Virus record (IMG/VR): IMGVR_UViG_3300011888_000003
Length of the DNA stretch: 64,000 bases
Direction: 5' to 3' (one strand)
Source: an uncultured virus (IMG/VR IMGVR_UViG_3300011888_000003)
Lineage: Duplodnaviria; Heunggongvirae; Uroviricota; Caudoviricetes
Below, one piece after another: positions 1 through 20,096 of the stretch. Within the stretch, counting starts at the first letter, position 1; every line of letters starts with the position of its first letter. A model generated the notes under the pieces. It was not told the DNA's origin, made no database searches, and saw only the letters and a program-made list of their open reading frames with translations. Made by a program: the position numbers and the translations under genes.

Positions 1-12
1 GAATCCTGCATA

Positions 13-495
13 TTAGAGGGGAGAAGAGGTGGGGAGGGAGGTGAAGGAGTGGAGGGCGCGAGGGATATTGTCATAAAGAAGGGTGATGCTTTTGGTTTCT
101 ACTGTGCTGTGTAGGGTGTTTGTTTGACTGATGAAGAAGAGAAGGTGGTCTTTGTCTTTGACGGGAATGAGCTCACTTTTATTAAGGTACTGGACGCGTA
201 GTGTAGAGTCAGAGGAGTTAGTGATGAGGGCGCGTAGTTCATATTGAGTGGATACGGGGGATTGCTGTTGGAATCGTTTTAGGTTTTTGACGAGGTAGTC
301 GGTGATGATGTCTTGGTTGGTCGGTGAGAAGTAGCAGAAGGCACGGTGGCGAGGCGAGCGTTCATGAAAATGTCGGGTGAGTTGAATGACAAAGACGTGA
401 GGTTCTTTGTCGATGAGTGTGTCTTTGGAGTAGAGGACAAGATAGAGTTGATTGAAGATAGGGCTGTGTACGAATTGTCCTGGTGTGAGTTCCAT
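13..495 (-). CDS. hypothetical phage protein (160 aa)
   Basis: ORF with upstream AGGAG RBS, in tandem with neighbouring minus-strand genes. Confidence 0.7.
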   Translation of the reverse strand: MELTPGQFVHSPIFNQLYLVLYSKDTLIDKEPHVFVIQLTRHFHERSPRHRAFCYFSPTNQDIITDYLVKNLKRFQQQSPVSTQYELRALITNSSDSTLRVQYLNKSELIPVKDKDHLLFFISQTNTLHSTVETKSITLLYDNIPRALHSFTSLPTSSPL

Positions 496-509
496 GGGAG
501 TCTCCTTTC

Positions 510-992
510 TTAGAAGGGTTCTTGGATGGGAGTATAAGGGTCGAGTGTCTGTTTATTGACTTTGCGATAGAGTTGAAGGATGTTGTAGCGGGCGGGGCCA
601 AACTCCAGTTCAGAAAGCAGTAGCTTCTTACTATCAAGGATAGCTTCAAGTTCTGCCAAGCTCTTTATCTCGACGAGTCTATGATACATGGGATAGAAGG
701 TCGCGATTTTGTTGTACATGGCTCGAACGGAACTGAGGAGGTCTTTGCTTTGTTTGTCATTGAATGTATTATCTAAGAGACGGAAAATGACGTCATCGAG
801 TTCAGGAAGACAGTGGAGCGGGAAACCTGAATACGTATATTCATGGTGTAATAAGTAGGACTTGAGTGGGGTGAGAACGATACAGAGTGGCGTCGTGCCA
901 TCTTCTGGTTTAAGACTCATGTTCGTTGAATCGACGGAGAACAAGAGGCCTTCGCGACGCGGATGATAATAAAACTTTCCTTTTGTAATCAT
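510..992 (-). CDS. hypothetical phage protein (160 aa), C-terminus IQEPF
   Basis: ORF with AAAGGAG RBS. Confidence 0.75.
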   Translation of the reverse strand: MITKGKFYYHPRREGLLFSVDSTNMSLKPEDGTTPLCIVLTPLKSYLLHHEYTYSGFPLHCLPELDDVIFRLLDNTFNDKQSKDLLSSVRAMYNKIATFYPMYHRLVEIKSLAELEAILDSKKLLLSELEFGPARYNILQLYRKVNKQTLDPYTPIQEPF

Positions 993-1087
993 AGTTATCT
1001 CCTTTCAACAGGGGAGCCATAGTGGATGTGTCAGGTTTTTTAAAAGAACTCCATAGGGAGGCCATCGCGGATGTGTCTCGGCTAAAT

Positions 1088-1168
1088 TAAAAAAACGCCC
1101 TCCGATGCAGTCCAGGTACGAGGAGAGGGGTAGGCTCCTACAATACCTGAACTACACCGAAGGGCGTA
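1088..1168 (-). ncRNA. putative long-hairpin small RNA or extended terminator with C-rich loop
   Basis: Minus strand pairs ACGCCCUUCGG/UCGGAGGGCGU, UGUAGUUCAGGUA/UACCUGGACUGCA and AGGAG/CUCCU, then a U-run. Confidence 0.45.
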
Positions 1169-1200
1169 TATGTCCCTAAGGGTGAGTCAATGAATCAACA

Positions 1201-1230
1201 ATCAAGAAAGGAAGGCCGAAGGCCCTCCGC
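1201..1230 (-). promoter_or_regulatory. GAA-triloop hairpin element (putative phage RNAP promoter)
   Basis: ATCA-AGAAAG-GAAGGCC-GAA-GGCCCTCCGC. Confidence 0.6.
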
Positions 1231-1237
1231 ACTTGAC

Positions 1238-1828
1238 TTAGAACGGCTGGTTGTCGTCCCCTGCACCGATGATGCCTGGTACAGCTGGAGTCTCAACAGC
1301 CGGTGCAGGCGCTTGTACGCCCGCACTTTGTTGTTGCATTTGCTGGAACGCCAAGAACTGTTGGAACTGAGCCATGAGTTCAGGGGTCATACCAGCAGGC
1401 GCCACCTGTGCTTGCGCGACAGGTTGAGCCGGTGCTTGCGCCTCTGCCTGAGCAGACGCTTCACACAATTTGTGGACGTGACGAAGGATTTGCGCGCGGA
1501 TAGGACGTACGATAGAGAGGATGTCCGAATACTTCGTTTCCCCGTTCTCTTTGTACGAATCCTGTGGCACGACAAGACGTAACGAATGCCCGTCATCATT
1601 GCGGAAGACTGAGACATTGATACCGCCGACGACAGTATTCAAGAATACGTTCGCGACGACACCCTGTTTCTTCTGTGCTTCCGAGTGCGCGGCTGTTACC
1701 TTCATCGAGATGATACCGAGTTTCGCATTCGAGTCTTTGTCCGTGACGTCATCAAGACCTTTCGCGTCAGACAAATACCAAAGACGTCCAGTACCTTCTT
1801 GTTGCACGTTCGTGTTAATTTGTAGCAT
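1238..1828 (-). CDS. SpoVG/SSB-like nucleic-acid-binding protein
   Basis: Beta-rich core (LRLVVPQDSYKENGETKYSDI) reminiscent of SpoVG, a Q/A/P-rich linker and an SSB-like acidic tail DDNQPF; AGGAGG RBS. Confidence 0.55.
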   Translation of the reverse strand: MLQINTNVQQEGTGRLWYLSDAKGLDDVTDKDSNAKLGIISMKVTAAHSEAQKKQGVVANVFLNTVVGGINVSVFRNDDGHSLRLVVPQDSYKENGETKYSDILSIVRPIRAQILRHVHKLCEASAQAEAQAPAQPVAQAQVAPAGMTPELMAQFQQFLAFQQMQQQSAGVQAPAPAVETPAVPGIIGAGDDNQPF

Positions 1829-1913
1829 GTGAATTCCTCCTTTTAATGTCGCGTGGACAATATGGTTTGCCTAAGACGATGTTGAACCCTGAGTGGGCGA
1901 ACATGGTCGCTGA

Positions 1914-1978
1914 TACACCTTGCCTCATCAGACCTACGGAAGGCACCCGTAGATGACGCCCAAATGGACGTTTCGGCT
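1914..1978 (-). ncRNA. type II hammerhead ribozyme
   Basis: GCC-GAAA-CGUCC(auuu)GGGCG-UC^-AUCUACGG(gugccuu)CCGUAGGU-CUGAUGA-GGC; loop I can pair with downstream AAGGUG (pseudoknot); predicted cut between 1955 and 1954. Confidence 0.9.
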
Positions 1979-1993
1979 TGTAGAACAAAAAGA

Positions 1994-2080
1994 ATCAAAA
2001 AAAGAAGGCCGAAGGCCCTGCGCTCTTAAGGTTTTCAAGAACGCTTTTAATCATTAAAAGAAGGCCGAAGGCCCTGCGCT
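1994..2080 (-). promoter_or_regulatory. two tandem GAA-triloop hairpin elements
   Basis: ATCA-AAAAAA-GAAGGCC-GAA-GGCCCTGCGC (1994-2023) and ATCA-TTAAAA-GAAGGCC-GAA-GGCCCTGCGC (2050-2079). Confidence 0.6.
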
Positions 2081-2087
2081 TTTGGGT

Positions 2088-2294
2088 TTAAAGGGTCAGA
2101 TAGATGAATCCGACAACGAACGCGGTCATGCCTATAGAGAGGATGACGCACTCGTAGCAGTTGGTGAACGCATAACTACGTTTGACTTTATCCTTGGAAT
2201 GACGGACACGGATATATTTAAGGGTCGCGCGGAACGTCAAGGAATAGAAGAACAACAAGAAGAGAATCAAGACGGCAATGAGTACTGGAATCAT
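2088..2294 (-). CDS. small membrane protein (2 predicted TM segments)
   Basis: Two hydrophobic stretches; GGAGG RBS. Confidence 0.7.
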   Translation of the reverse strand: MIPVLIAVLILFLLFFYSLTFRATLKYIRVRHSKDKVKRSYAFTNCYECVILSIGMTAFVVGFIYLTL

Positions 2295-2303
2295 GAGTAC
2301 CTC

Positions 2304-2492
2304 CTATTGTAGGTGGAATGCTTGATAGAATAGGTAAAAGGCGAGACCGAAGAATATCATGTAACCGATGAAGTGGTCGTCGAGCCGGTTCTCCTTGTAA
2401 GATAGATATAAGAGTCCGAGACCGATGAGGAATGAGATGAAGCCGACGAAGCAGATGACGAATGCGAATTCACTGGCTGTACCTTCAAACAT
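2304..2492 (-). CDS. small membrane protein (2 predicted TM segments)
   Basis: Two hydrophobic stretches; AGGAGG RBS. Confidence 0.7.
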   Translation of the reverse strand: MFEGTASEFAFVICFVGFISFLIGLGLLYLSYKENRLDDHFIGYMIFFGLAFYLFYQAFHLQ

Positions 2493-2538
2493 GAGAATAC
2501 CTCCTAAAAGGGAGAGGGCAGGGCGACCCTCTCATGTA

Positions 2539-3123
2539 TTATGCTGTCGTTTCCGCGACAGGTGCTTCAGGTGCTGGTGTTTGCTTTGCGTCCTGTTGAC
2601 TCTTGAGGAGCTTGACGATTTCAGAGAACGATGCTTGTTGCTCTTGGAGCTGGACTTGCGTCTGTGCGAACTGCTGTTCAAGTTTGTTGAGACGCTCATC
2701 TTCGATTTCTTGTCCACCAAGGAGTTCCTTCGGTAACTGGATGTTGATGACTGGCTGAAGCTCTTCTTGTTTACGTGGGTCGACAGGTGCGCCACCGAGC
2801 ATGCGACGAGCTTTCTCCAGGATAGAACCATCATGGTACGCGGCTTCACGTTTCTCGAAGACATCGATTTGTTTATCGACGACTTTCTTCTCGCGATGGA
2901 GTCCTACCATTTCGACAGCTTTTGCATGGACGTCTGGGACTTCGAGTCCGAGCTTCTCATAGAGACCGTTGATGAGCAAAGCGTTCTCCATGTTGCTGAC
3001 GTCACTTTCGTTTTTGTGCTCCATGAACTTGTTGCCGGATACCGGAAGCATGCCTCCGAGTTTAGAACCGACTGAACGACTGCGTGGGTTATTATATTCC
3101 TCAATAAAACGTTGTGCTGACAT
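2539..3123 (-). CDS. hypothetical protein with Q/E-rich coiled coil
   Basis: 194-aa ORF with GAGGAAG RBS. Confidence 0.75.
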   Translation of the reverse strand: MSAQRFIEEYNNPRSRSVGSKLGGMLPVSGNKFMEHKNESDVSNMENALLINGLYEKLGLEVPDVHAKAVEMVGLHREKKVVDKQIDVFEKREAAYHDGSILEKARRMLGGAPVDPRKQEELQPVINIQLPKELLGGQEIEDERLNKLEQQFAQTQVQLQEQQASFSEIVKLLKSQQDAKQTPAPEAPVAETTA

Positions 3124-3154
3124 ATGAATCTTCCTCTCTAAAATAGATTGATGC

Positions 3155-3184
3155 CCTAAAAAAAGAAGGCCGAAGGCCCTCCGC
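3155..3184 (-). promoter_or_regulatory. GAA-triloop hairpin element
   Basis: CCTA-AAAAAA-GAAGGCC-GAA-GGCCCTCCGC. Confidence 0.55.
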
Positions 3185-3203
3185 CTTTAGGGGTTGACTG
3201 ATG

Positions 3204-3566
3204 TTAGACGCTAACGACTTGTTTGATACCACCGAAGCGATATCCTTGTGTACCATCTTTACGGACGTGACCATACGGCACATGGTTCAATACATCGATG
3301 ACTTCATAGTAGAGCATGCCGTCCTCTGCTTGGATAGTGGCGACGATGCTCGTATCCATGAACGGATTGACGATGGCGAACGCGTCTCCGTTCTTTAAGT
3401 CAAGGACTTGGTCGGAGGCAAGACAGAGGTCTGCTAGGATTTCATATTGCGACAGGTTCATGTCTTCAATCTTCTGGAGTGGTTTCTCAGGGATGATGAA
3501 CTTGGCGTTCATTCCGCTGACGATGACTTTGTCTTCGAACGTGTGTGCTTGAGTAGTTGGATGCAT
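3204..3566 (-). CDS. hypothetical protein
   Basis: ORF; start moved to the ATG (MHPTT) following the GAATGGAG RBS. Confidence 0.7.
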   Translation of the reverse strand: MHPTTQAHTFEDKVIVSGMNAKFIIPEKPLQKIEDMNLSQYEILADLCLASDQVLDLKNGDAFAIVNPFMDTSIVATIQAEDGMLYYEVIDVLNHVPYGHVRKDGTQGYRFGGIKQVVSV

Positions 3567-3599
3567 GATTGATTTCTCCATTCGTATTTAGATTTAGGA

Positions 3600-4130
3600 T
3601 TAGTATTGTAATGAGCTTTGTGGAACGGGATTGTCGAGGTTCTTCTGGACATATTCCTTCCACGGGAAGACGTAACCAGGTTTCTTCTTCCAGATGAGGT
3701 GCTGATAGGAATCGGTCTGTACACCGTCCCATAACCAGAGGATGGCGTCGCTCTCTCGAATCAGGATGAGGTTGCGATTATCGAGGAGCTTCTTCATCGG
3801 CTTATCTTCGTCGCGTTCCTGCATGTAGGTCACTTGCTTGGCATGTTCCAGTTGTTCACGGACATGTACCCAATCGGCGCCTTGCTTCTTACCGAAACCA
3901 GGGAAGGGAAGGATGAGGTGAATCTGCTTCTCATAGCCGTTGTGATAGAGCCACTTCATGGCACGGCAATCCCAATGGTCGGCGCAACCAATCAAGAAGG
4001 TATGCCCTTCTTTTGCTAAGACTTTCAATTGTTTGATTTGCCAATCGAAGATGTCGTCGAGATAAGGACTCTTCCGATTGTAGTAGAGATGATGGGGACG
4101 CATACGCATACCGATGATACCTATCTTCAT
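3600..4130 (-). CDS. SLOG-superfamily (YspA/DUF1273-like) protein
   Basis: MKIGIIGMR..P, FLIGCADHWD, LILPFPG and RNLILIRESDAILWLWDG follow the YspA-like pattern. Confidence 0.65.
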   Translation of the reverse strand: MKIGIIGMRMRPHHLYYNRKSPYLDDIFDWQIKQLKVLAKEGHTFLIGCADHWDCRAMKWLYHNGYEKQIHLILPFPGFGKKQGADWVHVREQLEHAKQVTYMQERDEDKPMKKLLDNRNLILIRESDAILWLWDGVQTDSYQHLIWKKKPGYVFPWKEYVQKNLDNPVPQSSLQY

Positions 4131-4444
4131 GAACCTGCACCTACCTTTTCTTCCCATGAGATAAGAAGATGAGAGGGATGCGTTTGATGGACAGTGAACC
4201 CACGATATGTCAATTGCTCCATGATAGCTTCATCGTAAGCATGAATGTTTGAGAAAAGGAATTCATAGTCAGAGAATGAGACATGATGAGAGTATAAGCC
4301 TCGTGCGGCACGTGGCATGCAATCTGCTATCATTTCTTCGGCGACATTGATGATTCTAGTATTGAGTACGGCGTCTTCATGTTGGTTCTGAAGATTCCGT
4401 TCGTTTGCCATGAAACGAAAGATTTCTGCTTCTGTAGACATCAT
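4127..4444 (-). CDS. hypothetical protein
   Basis: ORF; start placed after the GAATGGAG RBS. Confidence 0.7.
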   Translation of the reverse strand: MMSTEAEIFRFMANERNLQNQHEDAVLNTRIINVAEEMIADCMPRAARGLYSHHVSFSDYEFLFSNIHAYDEAIMEQLTYRGFTVHQTHPSHLLISWEEKVGAGS

Positions 4445-4471
4445 AGGTATCTCTCCATTCATATGAAATTT

Positions 4472-4501
4472 ATCAAGAGAAGAAGGCCGAAGGCCCTCCG
4501 C
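4472..4501 (-). promoter_or_regulatory. GAA-triloop hairpin element
   Basis: ATCA-AGAGAA-GAAGGCC-GAA-GGCCCTCCGC. Confidence 0.6.
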
Positions 4502-4503
4502 TC

Positions 4504-4794
4504 TTAATGTTTAACGACATAGATGACGCGATATGGTGCGACATCCTTGAAGTGGTGGTAGCCGAAATAGCATTGGTAACCGCATGAGTAGAAGAACAAT
4601 GAAAGGGCGAGCTCCTCTGCTGACGTGAGCTCTAGTTTAGTGACGCTTCTCGTGATGCGTGTATCATGTTGGAAGAATAAGGCGTCACGCATGTCACTTA
4701 AGATGTCTTCGATTAAGTCTTGGATGCTTGTGTTGAATTGGTTCAGTAAAGGGATAGAGTTCTCTGGTGTGAGAGAAAGCAATTTTTCGTTCAT
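4504..4794 (-). CDS. hypothetical protein
   Basis: 96-aa ORF with GAACGGAG RBS, flanked by two hairpin elements. Confidence 0.7.
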   Translation of the reverse strand: MNEKLLSLTPENSIPLLNQFNTSIQDLIEDILSDMRDALFFQHDTRITRSVTKLELTSAEELALSLFFYSCGYQCYFGYHHFKDVAPYRVIYVVKH

Positions 4795-4824
4795 AGGTAT
4801 CGCTCCGTTCGTGTTGGATTTAAA

Positions 4825-4854
4825 ATCAAGAAAAGGAGGCCGAAGGCCCTGCGC
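4825..4854 (-). promoter_or_regulatory. GAA-triloop hairpin element
   Basis: ATCA-AGAAAA-GGAGGCC-GAA-GGCCCTGCGC. Confidence 0.6.
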
Positions 4855-4856
4855 TC

Positions 4857-5153
4857 TTAAGATTGAAATTGTGCGTAATACTCTTCTTCCAGGCGTGCGA
4901 GTTCCATTGGGGATAAGACTTCAATATCAGGAAGCAAAGGCGTGAACGGGCAATTGGCGCGATATGCTAAGTGTTTCTCACAAGCCCGTGCCCGTGTGAG
5001 TAGACTGTCGAGTTTCCCACTAGGCCGAAGGCTAACGATGTCTTTATCTTTGGCGACGATTTTATTGACACATCCATTGACGAACAAAGCTTCCTGGACG
5101 AATGCTTCTGCGTAATCTGTTGGATTCTGTAATATCTCTTGATAACCGTACAT
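4857..5153 (-). CDS. hypothetical protein
   Basis: 98-aa ORF with AGGAGG RBS. Confidence 0.7.
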   Translation of the reverse strand: MYGYQEILQNPTDYAEAFVQEALFVNGCVNKIVAKDKDIVSLRPSGKLDSLLTRARACEKHLAYRANCPFTPLLPDIEVLSPMELARLEEEYYAQFQS

Positions 5154-5210
5154 GTTAACTCCTCCTTTTTAGTAGACTGACGAGACCGCTCTTAAGCTGA
5201 AGGCAAGAAG

Positions 5211-5262
5211 AAGGATATGTCCTCTTATCACTTGATATGTCAGCCAGTGGATATGTGTCCAC
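5211..5262 (-). repeat. three tandem GA-CAUA-UC mini-hairpin/palindrome motifs
   Basis: AGGATATGTCCT, TGATATGTCA and GTGGATATGTGTCCAC; related copies near 1023, 1069, 1165, 7017, 7035 and 8011. Confidence 0.55.
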
Positions 5263-5266
5263 TTAT

Positions 5267-5292
5267 AAAAAAAAGAGAGCCCGAAGGCCCTC
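5267..5292 (-). terminator. intrinsic terminator related to the hairpin element
   Basis: Minus strand GAGGGCC-UUC-GGGCUCUC followed by an 8-U run, immediately after a stop codon. Confidence 0.55.
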
Positions 5293-5623
5293 AAGGACGA
5301 TGCTGGTCAAAATGTTCTGCTAGGTCGACAATTTGTCGTTGCTCATGCAAGAGTAAGCGCTCTGTGTCTTCATAGAACTCGAAGATACGAGTGACGGCGT
5401 AATCATAGTCAGCGCCGGTATATCCGACGAGGTCAGCAATCCGTTCCGCCGTATAATACCGAATGTCTTTGCTATGCTCTCCGATGAAGTGGAAGCTAGA
5501 GACTGTAATGAACTCCTTTGTCTCAGGATGGTCCTTGTGGGCATATTGTTCAGTGAAGACCGCATTCATGGCAAGAGCTAGACGATGTGTAATGCCATTG
5601 TTTGAAAGTGGATGTGTCGGCAT
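5291..5623 (-). CDS. hypothetical protein
   Basis: 110-aa ORF with AGGAGG RBS. Confidence 0.7.
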   Translation of the reverse strand: MPTHPLSNNGITHRLALAMNAVFTEQYAHKDHPETKEFITVSSFHFIGEHSKDIRYYTAERIADLVGYTGADYDYAVTRIFEFYEDTERLLLHEQRQIVDLAEHFDQHRP

Positions 5624-5665
5624 GATGTGTCCTCCTTTAAATAAAAAAAGAGAGGCCGGAGCCCC

Positions 5666-5938
5666 TCACTGACTGAACTTAGCGTGCGTAATCATCATGT
5701 TGATATCTTTGCCTTCGAACTGATACGGGATATCGAAACCATAAGGAATCGGGTAGAACGTCGTGCCGTCGACAGAGACTTCATACATGCGTTGTCCTTC
5801 ATTGTTGAAGTGCGTCATGCGAGCTTCCTTGATGCCTTCATACAGGACACCGTCACGATAGATATCCATGTATGCTTTTGTTTCCGTTTCATGATGTAAA
5901 GGTTTGATAGTAGTAGTAGGTTGGATAATAGTGTTCAT
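5666..5938 (-). CDS. hypothetical protein
   Basis: 90-aa ORF, GGAGG RBS, start overlaps the upstream stop. Confidence 0.7.
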   Translation of the reverse strand: MNTIIQPTTTIKPLHHETETKAYMDIYRDGVLYEGIKEARMTHFNNEGQRMYEVSVDGTTFYPIPYGFDIPYQFEGKDINMMITHAKFSQ

Positions 5939-6210
5939 GCTGTTGCCTCCTCTAAAATGTCGAATGAAATGATGCGTTTGCTTTCAATACATGATTCATT
6001 GTATTCCGCGACGGCCTCGTCAAGAGACTTATAGCGTGTATCGACGTTTCCTGCAATTGAACGACGACTGAGGACACGCTTCTCGAAATCGAAGTCGTTG
6101 ATGCATGAGATATTGTTATTAACGAATACCCCCCGTTGTCCGTTTTTAAGCAAAACAGCAACGAGAGGACGGTCGACGATAATACTATAGTGCATATCAA
6201 AGTATCTCAT
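5935..6210 (-). CDS. hypothetical protein
   Basis: 91-aa ORF, translationally coupled to its neighbours. Confidence 0.7.
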   Translation of the reverse strand: MRYFDMHYSIIVDRPLVAVLLKNGQRGVFVNNNISCINDFDFEKRVLSRRSIAGNVDTRYKSLDEAVAEYNESCIESKRIISFDILEEATA

Positions 6211-6386
6211 TACATCGTCCCCGTTTCTTTTAAGATAGCATGCGTGCGAAGACGACTTGCCTTCGCTTGTTCGATGAGGCGTTCGCGTTCTTGACGGTCA
6301 CGTTCCGCAATCGTGATACCTGCGACTACCATAGAGAAGGCGTATAATAACCAAGCTTTACCGATAAATGTTAATGTACGTTTCAT
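6210..6386 (-). CDS. small membrane-anchored protein
   Basis: MKRTLTFIGKAWLLYAFSMVVAG hydrophobic segment; GAATGGAG RBS. Confidence 0.6.
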   Translation of the reverse strand: MKRTLTFIGKAWLLYAFSMVVAGITIAERDRQERERLIEQAKASRLRTHAILKETGTM

Positions 6387-6417
6387 GAGTTTCTCTCCAT
6401 TCGTATAAGGTTTTAGT

Positions 6418-6600
6418 TTAGAAGGTGATATTAACGACAAAGACTAAGATGCTGACAGTACAGAAGAAGATGACGCCCGCGCCGAGCATATCACGTTTCT
6501 CTTTGAAGAAATACATGGTAAAGCCACTCCCTACGACTACGATGAGTAGAAGTAGGAAGTAGAAGAAACAATAGGTCATGAAATCGATTAACGTCCACAT
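6418..6600 (-). CDS. small membrane protein (2 predicted TM segments)
   Basis: Hydrophobic 60-aa ORF with AAGGAG RBS. Confidence 0.65.
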   Translation of the reverse strand: MWTLIDFMTYCFFYFLLLLIVVVGSGFTMYFFKEKRDMLGAGVIFFCTVSILVFVVNITF

Positions 6601-6932
6601 TTGCGACTCTCCTTTAGTTGGCGGTCAGCCACTTTGATTTCATCAGCAAGGGAAGGAGCAGTCGTCATGAGACGATACTCCAATTGAACTTGTGATGCGG
6701 CACAACGTAACAATTCGCGTTCAATCCAGAAGACCTTTTGCTGATAGGCTACTTTGAGCTTTTGCTTGATGGACGCTGAACCGTCACGGTGCTTGATGAT
6801 ATGTGGCGTCTTCGCTTCGAGGATGATGCCCGTACGCACCTGTTTGTGTTCCGGTGCCTGATGCTCCGCTTCATCATAGCGGAAAGGCTTATCCATATTT
6901 GCTTCACGTTCGATTTGTTGATGTACTGACAT
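6588..6932 (-). CDS. hypothetical protein
   Basis: ORF; start placed after the GAATGGAG RBS. Confidence 0.7.
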   Translation of the reverse strand: MSVHQQIEREANMDKPFRYDEAEHQAPEHKQVRTGIILEAKTPHIIKHRDGSASIKQKLKVAYQQKVFWIERELLRCAASQVQLEYRLMTTAPSLADEIKVADRQLKESRKCGR

Positions 6933-6961
6933 TTGAATCGCTCCATTCATATTAGATTATA

Positions 6962-6991
6962 ATCAGACAAAGAAGGCGGAACGCCCTGCGC
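6962..6991 (-). promoter_or_regulatory. GAA-triloop hairpin element (covariant stem)
   Basis: ATCA-GACAAA-GAAGGCG-GAA-CGCCCTGCGC. Confidence 0.6.
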
Positions 6992-7065
6992 CCTTATCTT
7001 TTAAGCCGAAGGCGCTGGATATGTCCGATGCCCTGAATATGTCAATGCATAAAAAAGAAACACGC

Positions 7066-7323
7066 TCATAGACGAATCGAGCGTGCCCCGTTGAATACCA
7101 ATACATGGTCATTGCAGTCGCCACCACAATCACAGTCGTGACCAAGAAGACCTTGTGTATCGAACCCAAGAGCCTGGAACCCTTGAGCAAGCGTCATACG
7201 CCCGTAGACTTTTTTAGCTAAACGATTCGAGAGAACGAACCGGTCTTTCTTCCCAATGCCTAAGTCAGAAAGCAAAGGGCGGATAGTACGTGCCAATGCT
7301 TTACGTGCAGATTTGTTTGTCAT
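7066..7323 (-). CDS. hypothetical protein with HDCDCGGDCNDH Cys/His cluster
   Basis: 85-aa ORF with AAGGAGG RBS. Confidence 0.7.
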   Translation of the reverse strand: MTNKSARKALARTIRPLLSDLGIGKKDRFVLSNRLAKKVYGRMTLAQGFQALGFDTQGLLGHDCDCGGDCNDHVLVFNGARSIRL

Positions 7324-7373
7324 GAGTAAGCCTCCTTGAATGTGTATGTAAATAAAAAAGAAAGACGCCCCGA

Positions 7374-7745
7374 TTAAAACGGGACGTCGTAAGAACCACG
7401 TTCATTATTTAAATCAGCCCCACGAAGGTGGGATTTCAAACGCATTGCGTCAATCCCCTCAAGAACAGGGAAAGAAGAATCGCCTGGGTCAACAGGCGTG
7501 AAACGAGCGCAAGATGCCAAGATATCGTATGTTGCGTCAATAGCTTGTGTCTGCGGTACGTCCCATGCATCAGCAGGATTCAGTAATTCCGCCATGTATT
7601 GCAGATAATAAGGCGTATTGCCCATTTCCTCTGCATGGAAGACGAAACTGTGTACGAAGACGCAATCCTCAGAGATAGCGCCGCGCTTGAGCAATTTGTT
7701 CATAGATAGAGCAAGACCGTGTAACATCTCAGTATTAGGTAACAT
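7374..7745 (-). CDS. hypothetical protein, C-terminus YDVPF
   Basis: ORF downstream of a hairpin element; exact start uncertain. Confidence 0.65.
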   Translation of the reverse strand: MLPNTEMLHGLALSMNKLLKRGAISEDCVFVHSFVFHAEEMGNTPYYLQYMAELLNPADAWDVPQTQAIDATYDILASCARFTPVDPGDSSFPVLEGIDAMRLKSHLRGADLNNERGSYDVPF

Positions 7746-7770
7746 TAGAACCATTCCCTTCGATATTAGA

Positions 7771-7799
7771 TTCACGTACAGGTGGCCAAGGGCCCTATG
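7771..7799 (-). promoter_or_regulatory. hairpin element variant (AAG loop)
   Basis: TTCA-CGTACA-GGTGGCC-AAG-GGCCCTATG. Confidence 0.45.
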
Positions 7800-8186
7800 A
7801 AGTTGTGTGTAACATTAAGTATTTGCTATGTGCCGGAGGTTGGGTAAGCCTCCGCGCTACATAACACCTACTATCTATGACCGGCACACCCCTGTGCGTC
7901 GCATAGAATACGAATCCCCTATCCGGTAGGACAGAAAGGAGACCTGATGTCGTGTTCCTACCAAGTAGGAATTACGACCGTCTTTTCACCAACCCCCATC
8001 AGGGTAAAGTTGGATATGTCCAAAGACGGAAGTGCTCATGCTCTGATGACGCAATCCCCCTACTGGACAGTAGGAAGAAAGCGAGAGCCTTCACCGATAC
8101 TCTGGTGCAATTCAATGAGGTGTGAAGGCTCTATCCCGAAGGAACAAGAGAGCGTCTGGGTGGAATTAGATTCCCCTCATTGAATC
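7800..8186 (-). ncRNA. putative large structured ncRNA (about 385 nt) with a 5' pseudoknot
   Basis: Two crossing perfect 11-bp helices (8175-8185/8110-8120 and 8122-8132/8084-8094) plus several more helices; no credible minus-strand CDS; begins at the predicted start site of a hairpin element. Confidence 0.7.
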
Positions 8187-8286
8187 AAAAGCAGAAGGCC
8201 GAAGGCCCTATGCTCTTTTGGTACTGATTCGCCTCCTCCAAGAAGAAGGAGACGATATCACAAACAGGTGGCGGAACGCCCTGCGC
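8184..8286 (-). promoter_or_regulatory. two GAA-triloop hairpin elements upstream of the ncRNA
   Basis: ATCA-AAAGCA-GAAGGCC-GAA-GGCCCTATGC (8184-8213) and ATCA-CAAACA-GGTGGCG-GAA-CGCCCTGCGC (8257-8286). Confidence 0.6.
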
Positions 8287-8294
8287 CCTTGCCC

Positions 8295-8531
8295 TTAAAA
8301 CGGTAAGCCGTTGTCTTCTGCTAAGACGAGAGGCTTACGCTTCAACTGTGCCGCAATGCGACGGTCATCGGCCTCGAACGCCAATCGTACCCGTGCCTCG
8401 GAAATCTCACGACGACGGTCGCTGTACATTCCCTGAAGCTGATGGGTCGACTGCTCCTCATACCAATGACAGGGATACGGTAGTACCAGTTTCAATTGTT
8501 GAATCAGTGTAGTGCGTGACATATTCGTCAC
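8295..8531 (-). CDS. hypothetical protein, C-terminus DNGLPF
   Basis: 78-aa ORF with AAGGAG RBS; GTG start or the downstream ATG. Confidence 0.65.
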   Translation of the reverse strand: MTNMSRTTLIQQLKLVLPYPCHWYEEQSTHQLQGMYSDRRREISEARVRLAFEADDRRIAAQLKRKPLVLAEDNGLPF

Positions 8532-8549
8532 TCCTTCCTATGTGTTTAT

Positions 8550-8579
8550 TTCCAACGAAGCGGGCGGAACGCCCTACGC
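8550..8579 (-). promoter_or_regulatory. GAA-triloop hairpin element
   Basis: TTCC-AACGAA-GCGGGCG-GAA-CGCCCTACGC. Confidence 0.5.
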
Positions 8580-8647
8580 TCTTGCAGTGTGAGAAACAAT
8601 AGCCGAAGGCCCACCTTAGATAGGCAGGCCGTTCGACAAAGCGTGGC

Positions 8648-9991
8648 TCAGTTTGTAACACCTGCACGCTGTTTAGCTGTAATCTCTGTCATGTTGACAG
8701 GATTGTAGTCATGAGAAGCAGGGAACTGTTTCTGCACGACTTCTTGCCCGATACGACGAGTAGCAAGTAATGACCATGGGCAGATGTTGACTTGTGCACC
8801 ACGGAGTTTCTTGTACAGACGTGTAGCGACATCTTCTTTGCCATGTGGCATGAAGCGGATGACGTTGTCAGCGCCTTGTACAGCGGCTTTGCGAAGCTCA
8901 TAAGCATTACCATTGACCTCGATGATAGCGTCAGCCATCGAGCGAATAGCAGAGCTCATACGAGCAGGAGAGAAGATGTTACGCGCCTTCTCTTCTTCGA
9001 GCGTATCGCAATACTTTTGGAAGTGCTGTTTGTTCGTGAAAAGAATCAATTTGACATTAGGATGCACCTTCTTGATTTCTTTCCAAACAAACGGAATCGC
9101 AAACACTTCTAAGCCATTGAACTCTCCGACATGGAACGTATCCACCCCACGTTGAATCATACCAAGCATCGTCATGTGAAGCGCATGTGCAACCTCTTTC
9201 ATGAAGACGCCTGTCTGATGATGGTGTGAGAGACGACCGCTGTTGAAGACCGAGCTGAGCTCAGTAGGTGCGGCGATGACGGCTACATTGTTCGCTTTAG
9301 CGACTGTGACAGGTTTAGAGACCTGTTTCACTTCCTCCTTCACCTCCACTGGAGTGTCTTGTTTGACGGGCTCCTTGACTTCTTCCTTGACTGATGCGAC
9401 CTCTTCTTTGATGACAGGATTCTTTGCATAAGAAGCAATCAAATCATCCATTGACTCTTCGCTTGAAGCACCAGGGATTTTGACTTTGTCGAGGATAGAC
9501 AACGGCTTCTTCTCAACGACAGGTGTTTCGACAGGTGCTTGTTTGCTAAGCTCTTGTGAAAGAGCGTTCACAGCACCAGCATCTTGCATGTCTTGCATGT
9601 TTGACTCAACATCTTCGTTGCGTTCTTCTTTCTCGATGACTTCATCTTCGTCTTCATCGTCTTCGTCTAACTCATCGTAGAAGTTTTTGACTTCCATCGT
9701 TTTCATAGACTCTTTGAGCTCATCGATGACGACTTTGTTGCGAGCTTCTTGCGAAAGCTCAGCTTCTTCTTCTGAATCAGCGTCCGACATGTCTTCTTCC
9801 ATCTGTGCAAAAGCAGACAAGTTCTCTGCTTCTTCGTTGACTTCAACTTCAGTGACTTCGACTTCAGTGACAGTAGTGACGACAGATTGTGCTTTGAACG
9901 TTTCAAACATCTCGTTCAACTTAGCAGTTGTTTCATTCACGAGGTTTACTTGTGCTTGCATCATTTCGATAGTTACTGTTACGTTTGTCAT
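8648..9991 (-). CDS. acidic low-complexity N-terminus fused to a divergent SLOG/YspA-like domain
   Basis: E/D-rich first half; C-terminal RGVDTFHVGEFNGLEVFA...IKKVHPNVKLILF...ADAIIEV resembles DUF1273. Confidence 0.55.
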   Translation of the reverse strand: MTNVTVTIEMMQAQVNLVNETTAKLNEMFETFKAQSVVTTVTEVEVTEVEVNEEAENLSAFAQMEEDMSDADSEEEAELSQEARNKVVIDELKESMKTMEVKNFYDELDEDDEDEDEVIEKEERNEDVESNMQDMQDAGAVNALSQELSKQAPVETPVVEKKPLSILDKVKIPGASSEESMDDLIASYAKNPVIKEEVASVKEEVKEPVKQDTPVEVKEEVKQVSKPVTVAKANNVAVIAAPTELSSVFNSGRLSHHHQTGVFMKEVAHALHMTMLGMIQRGVDTFHVGEFNGLEVFAIPFVWKEIKKVHPNVKLILFTNKQHFQKYCDTLEEEKARNIFSPARMSSAIRSMADAIIEVNGNAYELRKAAVQGADNVIRFMPHGKEDVATRLYKKLRGAQVNICPWSLLATRRIGQEVVQKQFPASHDYNPVNMTEITAKQRAGVTN

Positions 9992-10068
9992 GTTAATTTT
10001 CCCCTTTCAAAGGAAAGAGCCCCTACTTTGTAGGAGCCCTTGAGAGTATTTGTATTACTTATCGGGTA

Positions 10069-11910: not shown

Positions 11911-11919
11911 AGTCGAGAA

Positions 11920-11957
11920 CTCCTTTCGTACCTCATCCAGTTTCTCTGGCTTGTTGG
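11920..11957 (-). promoter_or_regulatory. conserved 5'-leader motif, copy 1
   Basis: CCAACAAG-CCAG(agaaa)CUGG-AUGAGG-uacg-AAAGGAG. Confidence 0.6.
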
Positions 11958-11962
11958 CAATG

Positions 11963-12031
11963 CGACCTATCTCATCAGTATGGGGCTGGTCAATACCCCA
12001 CAGAGCCCCTCCGAAGAGGGACTTTCGAAAA
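11963..12031 (-). ncRNA. type II hammerhead ribozyme
   Basis: UUC-GAAA-GUCCCUC(uucg)GAGGGGC-UC^-UGUGGGG(uauugaccag)CCCCAUA-CUGAUGA-GA; loop UGACC can pair with downstream GGUCG; predicted cut between 12003 and 12002; stem II is short. Confidence 0.85.
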
Positions 12032-12056: not shown

Positions 12057-14876
12057 TTAAACGAATAGACGTACAGGGAAGAAGTGCTCTGATTTTGCAT
12101 GATACAAGAGCTCTTCTGGTGTTGGGTTTGTTTCAAACACATCGACGATGTGGCTGAGTGGCTCATCAAATGCTCCACCGTGTTTCGCCTCATCAATCGC
12201 CCAACGGACGATACATACCAACCAGTTAGCGATGTCTTCATAGTTACCGTACTCAACAGCAAGCAGGTAACGTTGGTGCGTCATTTCGAGCTTTTCTTGT
12301 GCATTCTCAGAGACAGCGATATCCTCTGAAAGCACGATGATGTCACGTTGGATATCAAGTAAGATATCTTCAACGTTCATCAAGCGGTTCGTCCACTTAC
12401 CGATAGACGAGACTTTCGCTGTCGCAACGATGTGAGCCGCCGCCATACGGTTGAAGACGTAGTACACGAGCTTCGCACGTTCTTCGTCGAGAACGTCTGC
12501 TTTATCGAACTTCAGTGTCCACGTGCGTGAACCGTTGACAACTTCTTGTTCGACGTTAAGCTTGTTGGCTTCGATGAAATCACCAACAAGAGCAAAGACG
12601 TCTGGTGCTTCTTCAGGACGCGCCCATGGGCAACCTCCTTCAACTTCTCCGTTTTCATCTTTGAAGAAGTCGAGCATTTTAACTTTATTTTTGAAGCTGT
12701 TGACAACATACTGGTTGAAGATAACCAAGCAAGTGTCACCGTCAAAGTCAGCGCCAGACATCGCTTCTGTCGTCATATCGACAGAGTTGAACAAGACCAA
12801 CCCTTTGAAGAATCCAGCTTTCGCCGCTTCGACGTAATAGCGCATTGCTTCTTCGTTCGCAAGCGTATCAACAGCGAGAACTTTACGGACTTCCTCTTTC
12901 TTGAGGATTGGGTAACGGACAGCGAGGAAGTAACCACGACGCAAGTTCCCTTTGCTGTCGACGACAATCGCACAACCAGCAGGGATAGAATCAACGTACT
13001 TGACGACTGGTTCTTTCCCATCGAACAGTTCATCGACAACTCCTTGGATGGCTTTCACGACCATGAAGATATCGAAGCCCATGTGACGCATTTTAGCGTC
13101 CTTGACCAAGATGCCACCTTTCTTGATTTTCTCAAGTGGCTTCGTTAACAAGTTTTGAACTTTACGTTTGACTGCCATATCCTTGATGATTTCAGGATTC
13201 GTTGAGAGCAAATTCTTGATGTCGATTAAGACATCATCCATCATGACATTCTTGTCGATTTCTTCTTCTTCGACCTCGACTTCCACTTCTTCTGCGTCTG
13301 CATCTTCATCAGCAGAAGTATCGCCTTTCTCCATCTTGTCGTAGTAGTCTGACTCGACGTTGAGGAGTTTGAGTGCCATCTTGCCGTCAAACGGTGCAGA
13401 CTTGACGTAAGATGCTGTGAACATGTTGAGAAGCTTCATGTTCTTTTGTGGGACGTCCATCGCGAGCAATGCTTGCGTTGCGACGAGTGCCATATCCTCT
13501 TCCTCTTCCATCCGTGATGCTTGGACGATAGAGAGTTTGAACGACCCATCAAGAAGCGATGGGAGAAGGTCGAGCTTCATTGCTCCATCCATGAAGACCA
13601 TGTCCGCTCCAGTCATCTGACGGAGTTTGTACGTGCCGTAAGCGAACGGCTTAAGACCATTCGCACCACGAGCTTGTACGGACTGGCCTTCGTCTTTCAT
13701 GTTGCCTTCCTGTTTGAGGTAGTAAGCTACCTCTTCAGAGAAGAGGATACCGCCATCCGTCATGTTCTTGACGAATTCGATATCTTCTTCGATGAGTTTC
13801 GGCATTTCAGCGCGTTGAACGATGACTGCACGTTCTGTTACCGTACGCATCATATCACCAATCAAGATGATACGACGTTTCCGGCCGTTGAGCATTTTGT
13901 GCTTAGACTGCAACACAGTGACGTGTTCTTTCTTGCCAACACCATTCGTGTAGTCACCCTCACGGATGATTTCCATCTCACCGAACAATGCTTCCATTAC
14001 CGTTGAAAAGCGTGACCCTGAAGCCGCCATATCCAGACGTTTCGGGTCCTTATCGATTTTGAACTTCCACTTGCCATCTTGCTCTCCACCGTAGACAGAG
14101 AGTTCGAATGACGCATTGAACCGGCTGTATACAGCAGTGACACGAAGATTGTGGTCTTTAAGCTTCTGCTCAAGAGTCGGACGGTTCGCGCGAGCAAACT
14201 CATAGAATGCCGCTTCCCCTTTCCGAGTTTGGGCTGGTGACGCCGAATTTGGCGTATAGAGAATCAATTCTTGCCCGTTGTGAAGTGCAATACCATTCAA
14301 AATGAATTTTTGAACGATTTTGGCAAGTTCGAGCAATGACATCTTGAAGAGCTTCGCGTACTGCTTTGTGAGCATGAACGCGAGTTCTTCAACGACTGGC
14401 ACAACACGGAAGTTGAGTTGCTTCGTGTTGTCGAACGCTTTAACGACAGACGTTTCAATGACTTTGCGGTCATTGTTTTGACGCGTGTACATTTCGAAAT
14501 CGTTGAACTCACACAAGTCACGGACAAGATGGTTTTCCGAGTTGCGTTGAACGAGCGTGTTCGAAAGTAAACGAGAAGTCTTAACATCAACGAGTGAATG
14601 CATAACGCCCGCTTCATCTTTTTCGAATCCACGGATGTAGATGAACGGCGTTACGTTATCACGTAATACGTATCCATCTCCTTTAAGCGTCAACATTTTA
14701 CGAAGAGCCGCGACACGTTGTGCTTTCTCTCCTTCAATTAAGACTGTCTCGCCGTTAACGATAAATGCCAGCACATATTCGCGTGCTGACAAGTTGAATG
14801 ATGGTGCCTTTGGTCCGTGATGACGAACCTTAATCTCTGCGTTTACTGCCTTTTTGAAACTGTTTGATACTGCCAT
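12057..14876 (-). CDS. YonO-like / cellular-RdRP-like single-subunit two-barrel RNA polymerase (939 aa)
   Basis: Ordered motifs SPAQTRKG, TDGGILFSEE, SVQARG..GLKP, AVRYP, MSGADFDGD (12735-12749), IGKWTN and AIDEAKHG. Confidence 0.88.
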   Translation of the reverse strand: MAVSNSFKKAVNAEIKVRHHGPKAPSFNLSAREYVLAFIVNGETVLIEGEKAQRVAALRKMLTLKGDGYVLRDNVTPFIYIRGFEKDEAGVMHSLVDVKTSRLLSNTLVQRNSENHLVRDLCEFNDFEMYTRQNNDRKVIETSVVKAFDNTKQLNFRVVPVVEELAFMLTKQYAKLFKMSLLELAKIVQKFILNGIALHNGQELILYTPNSASPAQTRKGEAAFYEFARANRPTLEQKLKDHNLRVTAVYSRFNASFELSVYGGEQDGKWKFKIDKDPKRLDMAASGSRFSTVMEALFGEMEIIREGDYTNGVGKKEHVTVLQSKHKMLNGRKRRIILIGDMMRTVTERAVIVQRAEMPKLIEEDIEFVKNMTDGGILFSEEVAYYLKQEGNMKDEGQSVQARGANGLKPFAYGTYKLRQMTGADMVFMDGAMKLDLLPSLLDGSFKLSIVQASRMEEEEDMALVATQALLAMDVPQKNMKLLNMFTASYVKSAPFDGKMALKLLNVESDYYDKMEKGDTSADEDADAEEVEVEVEEEEIDKNVMMDDVLIDIKNLLSTNPEIIKDMAVKRKVQNLLTKPLEKIKKGGILVKDAKMRHMGFDIFMVVKAIQGVVDELFDGKEPVVKYVDSIPAGCAIVVDSKGNLRRGYFLAVRYPILKKEEVRKVLAVDTLANEEAMRYYVEAAKAGFFKGLVLFNSVDMTTEAMSGADFDGDTCLVIFNQYVVNSFKNKVKMLDFFKDENGEVEGGCPWARPEEAPDVFALVGDFIEANKLNVEQEVVNGSRTWTLKFDKADVLDEERAKLVYYVFNRMAAAHIVATAKVSSIGKWTNRLMNVEDILLDIQRDIIVLSEDIAVSENAQEKLEMTHQRYLLAVEYGNYEDIANWLVCIVRWAIDEAKHGGAFDEPLSHIVDVFETNPTPEELLYHAKSEHFFPVRLFV

Positions 14877-19089: not shown

Positions 19090-20096
19090 GTCATCATGCC
19101 TTGAATGGACAATCCTTATTGATTGATATGCTTGGGATGAACCCGATGTCTCAACATATGCAAGAATACTCTTCTTACAAAGGAACGGTATCGGGGGGTT
19201 ACTGGAACCACAAACTACTTGAATCGACCAACATCGAAGTACAGCGACAACAAAAAGGTGGCCGAAGGCCCTTCGCCTTTCAAGTGTCCGAAAAACAATA
19301 TGTCAAAGCCCTTGAAGGGTTAAGAAAGAATGACAATGGGTTTATCAAACAACGCGCGATTGATGTTAAGAGCCACATCAGCAACATGTCTGGTAGAAAC
19401 AAGATATCAGCTCTTGCCGGTATCGGGCTTAAGATGGGGATTACGCACAGCATGATGGATGATGATGAAGATGGTGTTGTCTCTACTCTCGTGACTTCTG
19501 GTATCTATGCAGGAGCAGTCGGAGGCGCGGCACTCGTCGGAAGAGAGATGTTGAAGAAAGTCGAGATGCGGTCGAAGAAAATTCCACTATGGGAAAAACA
19601 AGTCAAACAGTTTGAGATGCAGTTGAAGGTAGAAGCCTTGAAAAAACAACAGCATCGTAATGCTGTCCCTAAAGGAGACTTCAAGCAAGAAGAACGTATC
19701 GAACGATTGGAACAAAAAGAGGCAAGGCGAACAAAAGAGACCCCAACGGACCGTCTCCATCGATTAAAGAACTCTTCTTCTGGTGAGTTAGGGAATCTAT
19801 TGTCGCACGAAGAACGTGTCGTAAGGACGAACAAACGTATCATGAAAGGAGGCAAGATTGCATTAGGGACGATTGCTGTAGGAGGCGCTCTTTCTGCCCT
19901 GCATGGCATCAAGCATAAAATGGATGTCAATGACATGAAGGAAGCACAAGAGAAAAACCTAGAGCGCAAACAACAGGAGCGCAAGAATAAACAACAAGAC
20001 TTGAGCTACAATAACCCGTCGTTTGGCAACATCGTCTTTGATATGTTTGAAGAACGGACGGCTCATTACCGAATGGGCGACGAAAAGTTTAAGTGA
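19086..20096 (+). CDS. hypothetical protein with Gly/Ala hydrophobic segments (possible virion protein)
   Basis: 336-aa ORF. Confidence 0.7.
   Translation: MSHHALNGQSLLIDMLGMNPMSQHMQEYSSYKGTVSGGYWNHKLLESTNIEVQRQQKGGRRPFAFQVSEKQYVKALEGLRKNDNGFIKQRAIDVKSHISNMSGRNKISALAGIGLKMGITHSMMDDDEDGVVSTLVTSGIYAGAVGGAALVGREMLKKVEMRSKKIPLWEKQVKQFEMQLKVEALKKQQHRNAVPKGDFKQEERIERLEQKEARRTKETPTDRLHRLKNSSSGELGNLLSHEERVVRTNKRIMKGGKIALGTIAVGGALSALHGIKHKMDVNDMKEAQEKNLERKQQERKNKQQDLSYNNPSFGNIVFDMFEERTAHYRMGDEKFK

Follow-up and report, generated by a model that had tools for sequence, protein, structure and literature searches.

Conserved hairpin elements as candidate RNA punctuation signals in the small-gene arm of an uncultivated large myovirus

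A 64,000-nucleotide stretch of DNA from an uncultured virus (IMG/VR record IMGVR_UViG_3300011888_000003; hereafter the window) carries a family of short, nearly identical hairpins between small genes. What do these elements do? The initial annotation of the window described about 11 fixed-spacing hairpins with a GAA triloop and proposed that they behave like promoters of a phage RNA polymerase. Judged from the sequence, our best reading is that they may act as punctuation, at the RNA level, of the early/middle gene arm of the phage. A phage that brings a non-canonical RNA polymerase also depends on stop and start signals of its own, of which few are known. A 35-nucleotide (nt) unit with two invariant flanks is a testable candidate for message punctuation by a YonO-type polymerase.

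A repeat family with one orientation and a fixed anatomy

The window contains 12 copies of the element, all in one orientation: the 11 described initially (e1 to e11) and one further copy, e12 (Table 1). The core GGCSGAASGCC is matched exactly at 11 places on the plus strand and nowhere on the minus strand. Allowing up to one mismatch raises the count to 15, where 1.58 would be expected and 0 of 100 shuffles reach as many. The family is real: the exact core is present at 10 of the 11 sites first listed, and the remaining site (e8, at 7771) has drifted to GGCCAAGGGCC and is exact in a close relative, G001. A covariance model built from 24 copies, 12 from the window and 12 from a more distant relative, G004, recovers those 24 only in 126,827 bases searched on both strands. 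The next-best match scores 16.9 bits (E 0.36), and no extra copy was found on either strand of the 64-kb window or the 53.7-kb G004 record.

The unit is 35 nt long and has sharp edges, with no information outside it. In gene sense (minus strand) it consists of AAGAGCG, a 7-bp GC stem, a 3-nt loop, a 6-nt pyrimidine-rich spacer and UGAUU. The window stem is GSAGGGCC...GGCCUUC and the loop is UUC. The information content of AAGAGCG, which is the conserved right flank reported earlier as read in gene sense, is high, and A7, A8 and C12 are invariant. The five positions of UGAUU carry 1.6, 1.3, 1.1, 1.1 and 0.8 bits, and the spacer carries less. Both flanks are more informative than the U-tract. 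UGAU, the ATCA of the initial annotation, is in exact register in 8 of the 11 sites listed there, the same eight among the 12 window copies, and in 17 of 24 copies across both phages. The closing pair covaries as reported, being C-GAA-G in eight window copies, G-GAA-C in three and a variant in one.

All 24 copies, e12 excepted, are on the gene-sense strand of the small-gene arm, and the window series (apart from e12, an orphan) does not extend beyond one 7.4-kb segment. Of the 12 copies in the window, six (e1, e3, e4, e5, e6, and e10) start no more than 11 nt from the stop codon of a minus-strand gene, and two of these have the stop codon inside the AAGAG block. The window copies that are not near a stop codon come after another hairpin, a box, or an RNA.

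Conservation in related phages

Three related records were examined, including G001 and G004. G001 (26 kb) is collinear with window positions 1-19795, to which it is 95-99% identical, and all 12 copies recur in it. G004 (53.7 kb), found through a polymerase profile, encodes a polymerase 42% identical to that of the window and is syntenic with the window arm; 16 orthologous proteins share 28-65% identity. It has 12 copies of its own, all in gene sense, with the unit A(A/G)AGCG, GGGGGCC, UAC(G), GGCCUCC, N6, UGAUU. Copies occupy orthologous sites at e11/26496, e5/31756, e4/33188, e3/34306, and e1/35531 (window/G004). Both e4 and its counterpart lack UGAUU, and e11 and its counterpart have similar tails. 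The orphan e12 is not present in the G004 orthologue of its open reading frame (ORF).

Common to the two phages are both flanks, the stem length, a G·U pair at stem position 5 and the 6-nt spacer; the stem sequence and the loop (UUC in the window, UAC in G004) differ. Family uniformity, together with conservation of AAGAGCG and UGAUU across phages, therefore points to a sequence-specific partner. Pattern scans of IMG/VR found G001 and G004 as the only carriers, with one other match, on two contigs, that is unrelated. A metagenome pattern scan gave single, apparently chance matches in each of at least 80 loci. A decayed copy is found at 5170-5200 (-) in the window, where AAGAGCGG is kept and the hairpin is lost; G004 has a full copy there (30966).

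The sense strand carries the selected structure

The sense RNA is more stable than the antisense RNA in 21 of 24 copies, with a mean minimum free energy (MFE) of -12.7 versus -9.6 kcal/mol. With DNA parameters the template fold is at -4.7 and the non-template fold at -5.2 kcal/mol, the latter being stronger in 20 of 24 copies. The 168 cells of the 7-bp stem include 125 Watson-Crick pairs, 22 G·U pairs in sense, 8 A/C cells and 13 others, counts that are not independent events because the copies are related by descent. The G·U cells become A·C mismatches on the template strand, and the A/C cells of the sense stem would be G·T there. At stem position 5, 15 of 24 copies have G·U in sense, which becomes C·A on the template, and the reliable stem of the template strand comprises only four Watson-Crick pairs (GGCC/GGCC). 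Compensatory pairs occur at stem position 1 (CG in 21 copies, GC in 3) and position 2 (CG in 18, GC in 3, AU in 1).

The stem can be extended to a hairpin of 15 pairs, in which AAGAG is joined to the pyrimidine tract, and bases immediately 5' of AAGAGCG pair with the U and G of UGAUU. Pairing is found in 78.8% of 353 cells of the extended hairpin, compared with 54.1-63.7% when one side is slid by 1-3 columns, and 1 of 500 shuffles attains this percentage. The covariation score is 0.218, versus 0.112-0.184 in the slid controls. About 278 cells of the extended stem are paired, and 84 of them are G·U wobbles that pair in the sense strand only. C12 is unpaired and invariant, and G13·U31 is a wobble in 21 of 24 copies. 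In e4 the UAGGG that replaces UGAUU pairs with CCCUA of its own 5' flank, a compensated variant with an MFE of -23.5. Because the sense fold is the more stable and the wobbles pair in sense only, the selected structure is that of the sense strand, most simply RNA.

A proposed punctuation signal in the nascent message

A GC-rich stem-loop in gene-sense RNA downstream of a gene is what is seen at a terminator, and 8 of the 12 window copies are picked up by a consensus terminator scan. The spacers of 6 nt are rich in T. Terminators in the late arm are all unlike in sequence, and the uniformity of the element family is therefore special.

We propose that, as the minus-strand genes are transcribed, the 35-nt unit would fold in the nascent sense RNA into the 7-bp GC-rich stem and 3-nt loop, which AAGAGCG and the pyrimidine tract would lengthen to about 15 bp. 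The upstream transcript would end, or be attenuated, about 7 nt past the stem, at the U|G of UGAUU, and would be left with a protective 3' hairpin. Copies with a good U-tract would halt most polymerases and copies with a poor tract would let them pass, so that genes would be co-transcribed to graded extents. Since the flanks are conserved, a specific partner would be expected to recognize the unit; the likeliest candidate is the transcription machinery of the phage itself, as for the sequence-conserved terminators of phiKZ and P23-45. U|GAUU may also mark the start of the next RNA, either by re-initiation on a T-rich-TGATT motif, in the manner of the fused P23-45 terminator-promoter pairs, or by cleavage.

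The composite proposal is thus a sense-RNA hairpin that would stop or attenuate the upstream message and shield the 3' end of that message, is recognized sequence-specifically by the phage transcription system, and is fused at fixed spacing to the 5'-boundary motif of the next RNA. We regard it as an even bet. What the sequences show is the family, lying almost always on one strand and mostly near stop codons, with conserved and covarying positions and U-tracts of graded quality. Termination itself, the partner, and the formation of 5' ends are what we infer.

The surroundings of the UGAUU junction are informative. Positions 7760-8300 are strongly folded (z = -6.6). In the minimum-free-energy fold, the structured RNA of roughly 380 nt that follows e9 has its first helix beginning at the G of UGAUU (8186), as the initial annotation had claimed, and the helix of a 10-bp hairpin RNA after e10 likewise starts at the G of its element (8259). 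Leaders from UGAUU to the start codon are 26-30 nt long in six cases. The non-coding structured block (7800-8186, minus strand) and the 10-bp hairpin RNA (8229-8255, minus strand) are located between e10, e9, and e8, and neither has an Rfam match.

We also predict a type II hammerhead ribozyme downstream of e2. It scores 33.3 bits against RF02276, below the gathering score of 37 (E 7.9e-4); the CUGAUGA / GAAA / GUC core is intact and cleavage is predicted between 1955 and 1954. The hammerhead is identical in G001, and G004 retains the core together with stems I and III; the G004 copy fell below Rfam-scan reporting and did not reach E 0.1. It lies 18 nt from the element in the window and 5 nt in G004. 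Its position after an element in both phages suggests that transcripts read through elements and are later processed. The RNA helices, leader lengths and hammerhead make the U|GAUU junction a plausible 3' end, 5' end, or both.

Several observations weigh against RNA punctuation as set out above. Under an approximate implementation of the d'Aubenton-Carafa terminator score, in which two copies gave no closed hairpin, only 7 of 24 copies score above zero and 3 lie near zero. The U-tract is missing from e8, e10, e11, and e12 (T-score < 1), in agreement with the earlier remark that some copies have none. Plain termination is indeed insufficient, as the initial annotation argued from such copies, because the flanks and spacing are kept at 42% polymerase identity while the stem and loop have changed. 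The arm also contains ordinary strong UUCG terminators, which raises the question of why a second type would be needed if termination were the sole job. At three G004 sites and one window site the element comes after promoter-like ACAUAUCC boxes and immediately before a gene, an odd site for a terminator unless it is a regulated attenuator. Copy-specific pairing of the flanks is not significant (native -5.9 versus cross-paired -5.3 kcal/mol, permutation p = 0.06), and the shared descent of the copies tempers the pairing counts. Finally, 20 of 24 loops are 3 nt long with a template complement of GNA. GNA loops are a class of stable DNA mini-hairpin (PMC13037366), and the loops therefore favour a role in DNA.

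The ordinary terminators account for two sites that had been listed as partial copies. The hairpins at 5275 and 5650 are of another kind: each has seven perfect base pairs, a tetraloop (UUCG or UCCG) and a tail of 7-8 U; the 18-nt hairpin of the former (5275-5292) is present twice in G004. The other two supposed partial copies, at 7003 and 8601, are bare 4-bp hairpins.

A bolder variant of the proposal is that the 35-nt unit may be the first recognizable transcription signal of the YonO-type single-chain two-barrel polymerases. The RNA hairpin would release the polymerase, and the DNA (as a hairpin or as T-rich-TGATT) would restart it at the G of TGATT, giving one-gene units. We consider this unlikely. 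It is worth testing because a 2017 paper describes the YonO promoter as still undefined (PMC5467207) and our literature searches found no later definition.

Alternative explanations

The elements could instead be hairpin promoters for a phage RNA polymerase, in which a C-GNA-G mini-hairpin extrudes from the template strand and transcription starts at the G of TGAT(T). TGAT is in fixed register in 17 of 24 copies from two distant phages, the initial GAUU is conserved, and each genome has its own uniform version, as is the case for phage polymerase promoters. The template-strand loop is GAA or GTA in 20 of 24 copies. The first helices of two structured RNAs start at the predicted G, the leaders from there to start codons are 26-30 nt long, and in both phages the elements are found only downstream of the polymerase gene cluster. 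The succession of hairpin, T-run and start also resembles the promoters of phage N4 (PMC4496689).

N4 has three such promoters, with 5-7 bp Watson-Crick stems, a loop centred at -11, conservation from -17 to +1, and a T7-type polymerase; four template A's act as a ruler (PMC4496689). Like these, the elements combine a small GC-rich hairpin, whose 3-nt loop in most copies would read G...A on the template, with a spacer that forms a run of A in the template strand and a purine at a constant distance. Unlike them, they occur in 12 copies, have a template stem of four pairs followed by a mismatch, have a loop centre at -16, and accompany a YonO-type polymerase. The mismatch is the conserved C·A found in 15 of 24 copies, and the 84 wobbles of the extended stem pair in the sense strand only. 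The template loop is not conserved in kind: it is GAA in 11 of 12 window copies, and in G004 it is GTA, with a central pyrimidine, in 8 of 12 and has 4 nt in the other 4. The loop centre is 16 nt from the start, versus 11 nt in N4. No T7/N4-type polymerase was seen in the window, which has one DxDGD polymerase. The elements are anchored to the upstream stop codon and not to the downstream gene, which is typical of terminators. The hairpin is lost at about 5170-5200, where the G004 copy is kept, yet the gene remains, and the orthologous pairs e4/33188 and e11/26496 lack TGATT. An N4-type template-hairpin promoter is thus not supported, and we think a hairpin promoter of any kind rather improbable. 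The promoter interpretation of the initial annotation is supported in part, in that the elements go beyond plain termination; its mechanism, an N4-like hairpin on the template strand, is not supported.

A second possibility, which we rate as equally doubtful, is that polycistronic RNA is cut at U|GAUU by a host or phage RNase, making a protected 3' end and the next 5' end. The elements have a conserved single-stranded motif at a fixed distance from a conserved hairpin, as well as the invariant unpaired C12 and nearly invariant G13·U31 wobble. Copies e8, e9, and e10, cited as lacking a U-tract, would simply be long stable hairpins. RNA helices begin at the G, and the predicted hammerhead places RNA cleavage elsewhere in the arm. 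However, stems of 13-17 bp would be short for RNase III, most copies are terminator-like in the consensus scan, and family scans recognized no nuclease gene among the ORFans of the window. The early-gene RNase III hairpins of phage T7 and Bacillus phage SP82 are similar in being conserved, intercistronic, and left as a protective 3' hairpin on the upstream message. They differ in that those substrates are longer, about 20 bp with an internal loop, and in that cleavage at the elements is a prediction.

The elements might also be ordinary terminators that recombination keeps uniform, with the repeats serving as crossover points for gene cassettes. The window and G001 are mosaic: identity is 76.0% at 7741-8220 and 69.7-83.0% at 5200-5599, versus 94.7-99.1% in the adjoining blocks (1-5290, 5291-7740, and 8221-9000), and conserved intergenic hairpins lie at the edges of the divergent blocks or beside them. 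The sequence on either side of 7741-8220 is about 99% identical to G001. The genes that lie between orthologous elements are not alike in the window and G004. The promoter early stem-loops (PeSLs) of T4-like phages behave in this way (PMC2839356, PMC4122927): they are intergenic stem-loops by small orphan genes, with a terminator or attenuator role and mosaic boundaries. In the window, too, the stem-loops are found between orphan genes and mosaic breakpoints fall at modules. Unlike PeSLs, which have a consensus sigma-70 promoter, the elements have none, are shorter (35 nt), and have flanks conserved between distant phages. Conversion within a genome cannot explain identical AAGAGCG, UGAUU, and 6-nt spacing where the stems differ and proteins are 28-65% identical. 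We found 26 sigma-70-type promoter-like sites in 20 kb, versus 27.2 expected, and none in the elements. Recombination as the cause of the uniformity is quite unlikely.

It is very improbable that the elements are nut-like sites, where a phage protein on AAGAGCG and the hairpin would modify the polymerase or translation: a conserved single-stranded block does adjoin a conserved hairpin, and some copies are between promoter-like boxes and a gene, but 12 copies per arm is far above the number of sites in known nut/put systems, a boxA-like string is present on the antisense strand only, and family scans identified no candidate protein.

Other candidates were rejected. If TTGATT is taken as a host-type -35 box, no -10 box follows at 16-18 bp; if TG is taken as part of an extended -10, the spacing varies and the -11 A is missing. 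A mobile or selfish repeat, similar to repetitive extragenic palindromes or miniature inverted-repeat transposable elements, was dismissed on account of the orthologous positions in a distant relative and the absence of terminal repeats. A lambda-nut-like reading was set aside on the strand of the boxA-like string noted above.

Comparison with mapped phage terminators

The elements may be new phage punctuation signals, and by analogy the nearest mapped counterparts are the conserved terminators of Thermus phage P23-45 and of phage phiKZ. In P23-45, 7 of 24 mapped RNA 3' ends have a common 26-nt hairpin motif, GGGGSG-N-CTAG-CCCCTC-TTTT, and there are fused terminator-promoter pairs, TTS1 at 340 with TSS2 at 346 and TTS8 at 3399 with TSS11 at 3405 (PMC10770324). 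In each pair only 6 nt separate the 3' end from the following start, and the T-run is therefore shared by both signals. P23-45 resembles the window phage in its single-chain two-barrel polymerases and in an ORFan-rich arm of short units, each ending in a sequence-conserved hairpin. The hairpins have no sequence similarity, and the P23-45 ends are experimentally mapped whereas the window elements are predicted. The P23-45 promoter motif, TTATTCCTTTA, is 6-49 nt from the hairpin, whereas UGAUU is at one fixed distance.

In phiKZ, 61 mapped terminators have one hairpin and TTAT motif (PMC10914365). Like the window phage, phiKZ has its own polymerases of two-barrel type and a uniform stem-loop with a short conserved T-rich word and no long U-run. 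The sequences differ, and phiKZ sites are genome-wide whereas the window family occupies one 7.4-kb segment, with ordinary terminators elsewhere. As in both of these phages, a uniform hairpin with a short downstream word is found in a genome that encodes a two-barrel polymerase.

Genome context and the phage polymerase

The window is part of a large unclassified myovirus, from a clade of large myoviruses that is uncultivated. The positions of its arms, polymerase gene, elements, terminators, and hammerhead are given in Table 1.

Table 1. Coordinates of the elements and other features in the window
Feature	Position (strand)	Description
Minus-strand arm	about 1-16.7 kb (-)	Small genes, each preceded by a strong ribosome-binding site
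Plus-strand arm	about 17-64 kb (+)	Encodes the portal, the major head protein, the sheath and four giant proteins
RNA polymerase gene	12057..14876 (-)	939-aa YonO/RdRP-type two-barrel RNA polymerase; upstream of the element series, same strand
e1	1200..1234 (-)	AAGUGCG, 8-bp stem, UUC loop, spacer CUUUCU, UGAUU; 50.5 bits; 5' end 3 nt past stop of putative SSB-like gene 1238-1828; terminator-like, d = 13.0
e2	1993..2027 (-)	UUUUUU spacer, UGAUU; 58.8 bits; tandem, 56 nt past e3
e3	2049..2083 (-)	53.8 bits; about 5 nt past stop of gene 2088-2294
e4	3154..3188 (-)	UAGGG in place of UGAUU; strong U-tract, d = 23.9; 42.7 bits
e5	4471..4505 (-)	16-bp extended hairpin, MFE -21.8; 55.2 bits; UAA stop of gene 4504-4794 within AAGAG block
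e6	4824..4858 (-)	Stop of gene 4857-5153 within AAGAG block; 56.7 bits
e7	6961..6995 (-)	GGCG/CGCC closing-pair variant; 51.8 bits; preceded by strong terminator, a pair of ACAUAUYC boxes and small hairpin; then UGAUUAUAAUCUAAUAUGAAUGGAG and start codon
e8	7770..7804 (-)	Weakest copy, 28.9 bits; loop CUU, UGAAU, no U-tract; after structured RNA block
e9	8183..8217 (-)	Continuous extended stem (C12·G32 pair); 49 bits
e10	8256..8290 (-)	GGCG/CGCC variant, ACC bulge type, UGAUA, no U-tract; 41.3 bits
e11	8549..8583 (-)	Tail GCUUCGUUGGAAAU; no U-tract, no UGAUU; 36 bits; first of series, after gene for 447-aa protein
e12	19246..19280 (-)	Orphan copy inside plus-strand ORF 19086-20096, antisense; no UGAUU; 33.7 bits
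Ordinary strong terminator	5275..5292 (-)	GAGGGCC UUCG GGCUCUC, U8; followed by three ACAUAUC boxes
Ordinary strong terminator	5650..5667 (-)	GAGGGGC UCCG GCCUCUC, U7
Ordinary terminator	7364..7388 (-)	9-bp stem, U-rich tail; followed by ACACAUUC box and ribosome-binding site
Predicted type II hammerhead ribozyme	1918..1978 (-)	In leader of putative SSB-like gene, directly downstream of e2

The 939-aa polymerase has a weak match to PF05183 (E 1.2e-4, below the cut-off), and its identity is also backed by its Atlas neighbours. Its motif SGADFDGDTC contains the sole DxDGD motif in the window and is invariant in the nine homologues found in public data, which have 44-99% identity. One homologue is on a 237-kb contig, which suggests that the clade consists of jumbo phages. 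A search of the polymerase against sequences of solved structures gave two chance matches (E 0.49 and 0.77), and a profile search against them gave none. Family scans of the 64-kb window recognized no polymerase of T7/N4 type. The four giant proteins have neither a DxDGD nor a DxDxD motif, and an Atlas search with the 2072-aa virion protein returned no result. Nothing in the GenBank phage collection matched.

The small genes of the minus-strand arm have no match to a known family, and almost all small proteins scanned in the window lack one. We scanned 31 against PHROGs, of which 1 had hits, and 26 against Pfam, with one sub-threshold match; all proteins that neighbour elements are without a family match. 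The protein encoded at 1238-1828 (-) is 196 aa long, has a linker rich in Q, A and P, and ends in GDDNQPF, a C-terminal tail typical of single-stranded-DNA-binding (SSB) proteins. From this tail we predict that it may be SSB-like; the protein has no family match. The leader directly before its ribosome-binding site is GUCCACGCGACAUUAAAAGGAGG, with one change in G004.

Boxes, leaders and introns

The window contains ACA(CA)UAUCC boxes on the minus strand at 8019, 7345, 7042, 7024, 5258, 5241, 5220, 1175, 1076, and 1031, and on the plus strand at 33960; G004 has them at 27948-35725. Typically two or three of them, spaced by about 20 nt, stand directly behind a strong UUCG terminator. One is upstream of the major capsid gene, and the boxes are conserved in the distant relative. 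They are candidate phage promoters or operator arrays, as judged from this arrangement. The element family also accounts for the mosaic gene content of the arm. Together with the hammerhead and the ACAUAUCC boxes, it offers a small toolkit with which transcription of the phage could be mapped when a host or an expression system becomes available.

Positions 1085-1165 (-) appear structured and resemble a small RNA, ending in a long-stem terminator (GGAGGGCG, then U7). This region has a ACAUAUAC box before it and two GACACAUCC-N-GAUGGC repeats after it, which are also found in G004 at 35678 and 35725.

Many minus-arm genes, with or without an upstream element, have the leader AAUCUAAUAYGAAUGGAG running into the ribosome-binding site. 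It is found at the gene starts 3566, 4444, 4794, 6386, 6932, and 7745 (-), and similar leaders are present in G004. AATCUAW is not enriched overall (11 matches versus 20.7 expected). The five matches on the minus strand are all non-coding and in the minus arm; four are just upstream of a ribosome-binding site and the fifth (8166-8172) is inside the non-coding RNA block.

In the plus-strand arm we found two group I introns, at 23380-23963 and 25280-25626 (88.4 and 57.6 bits), with an HNH endonuclease ORF (24509-25387) between them. The introns appear to split a terminase-like gene that starts at 21692.

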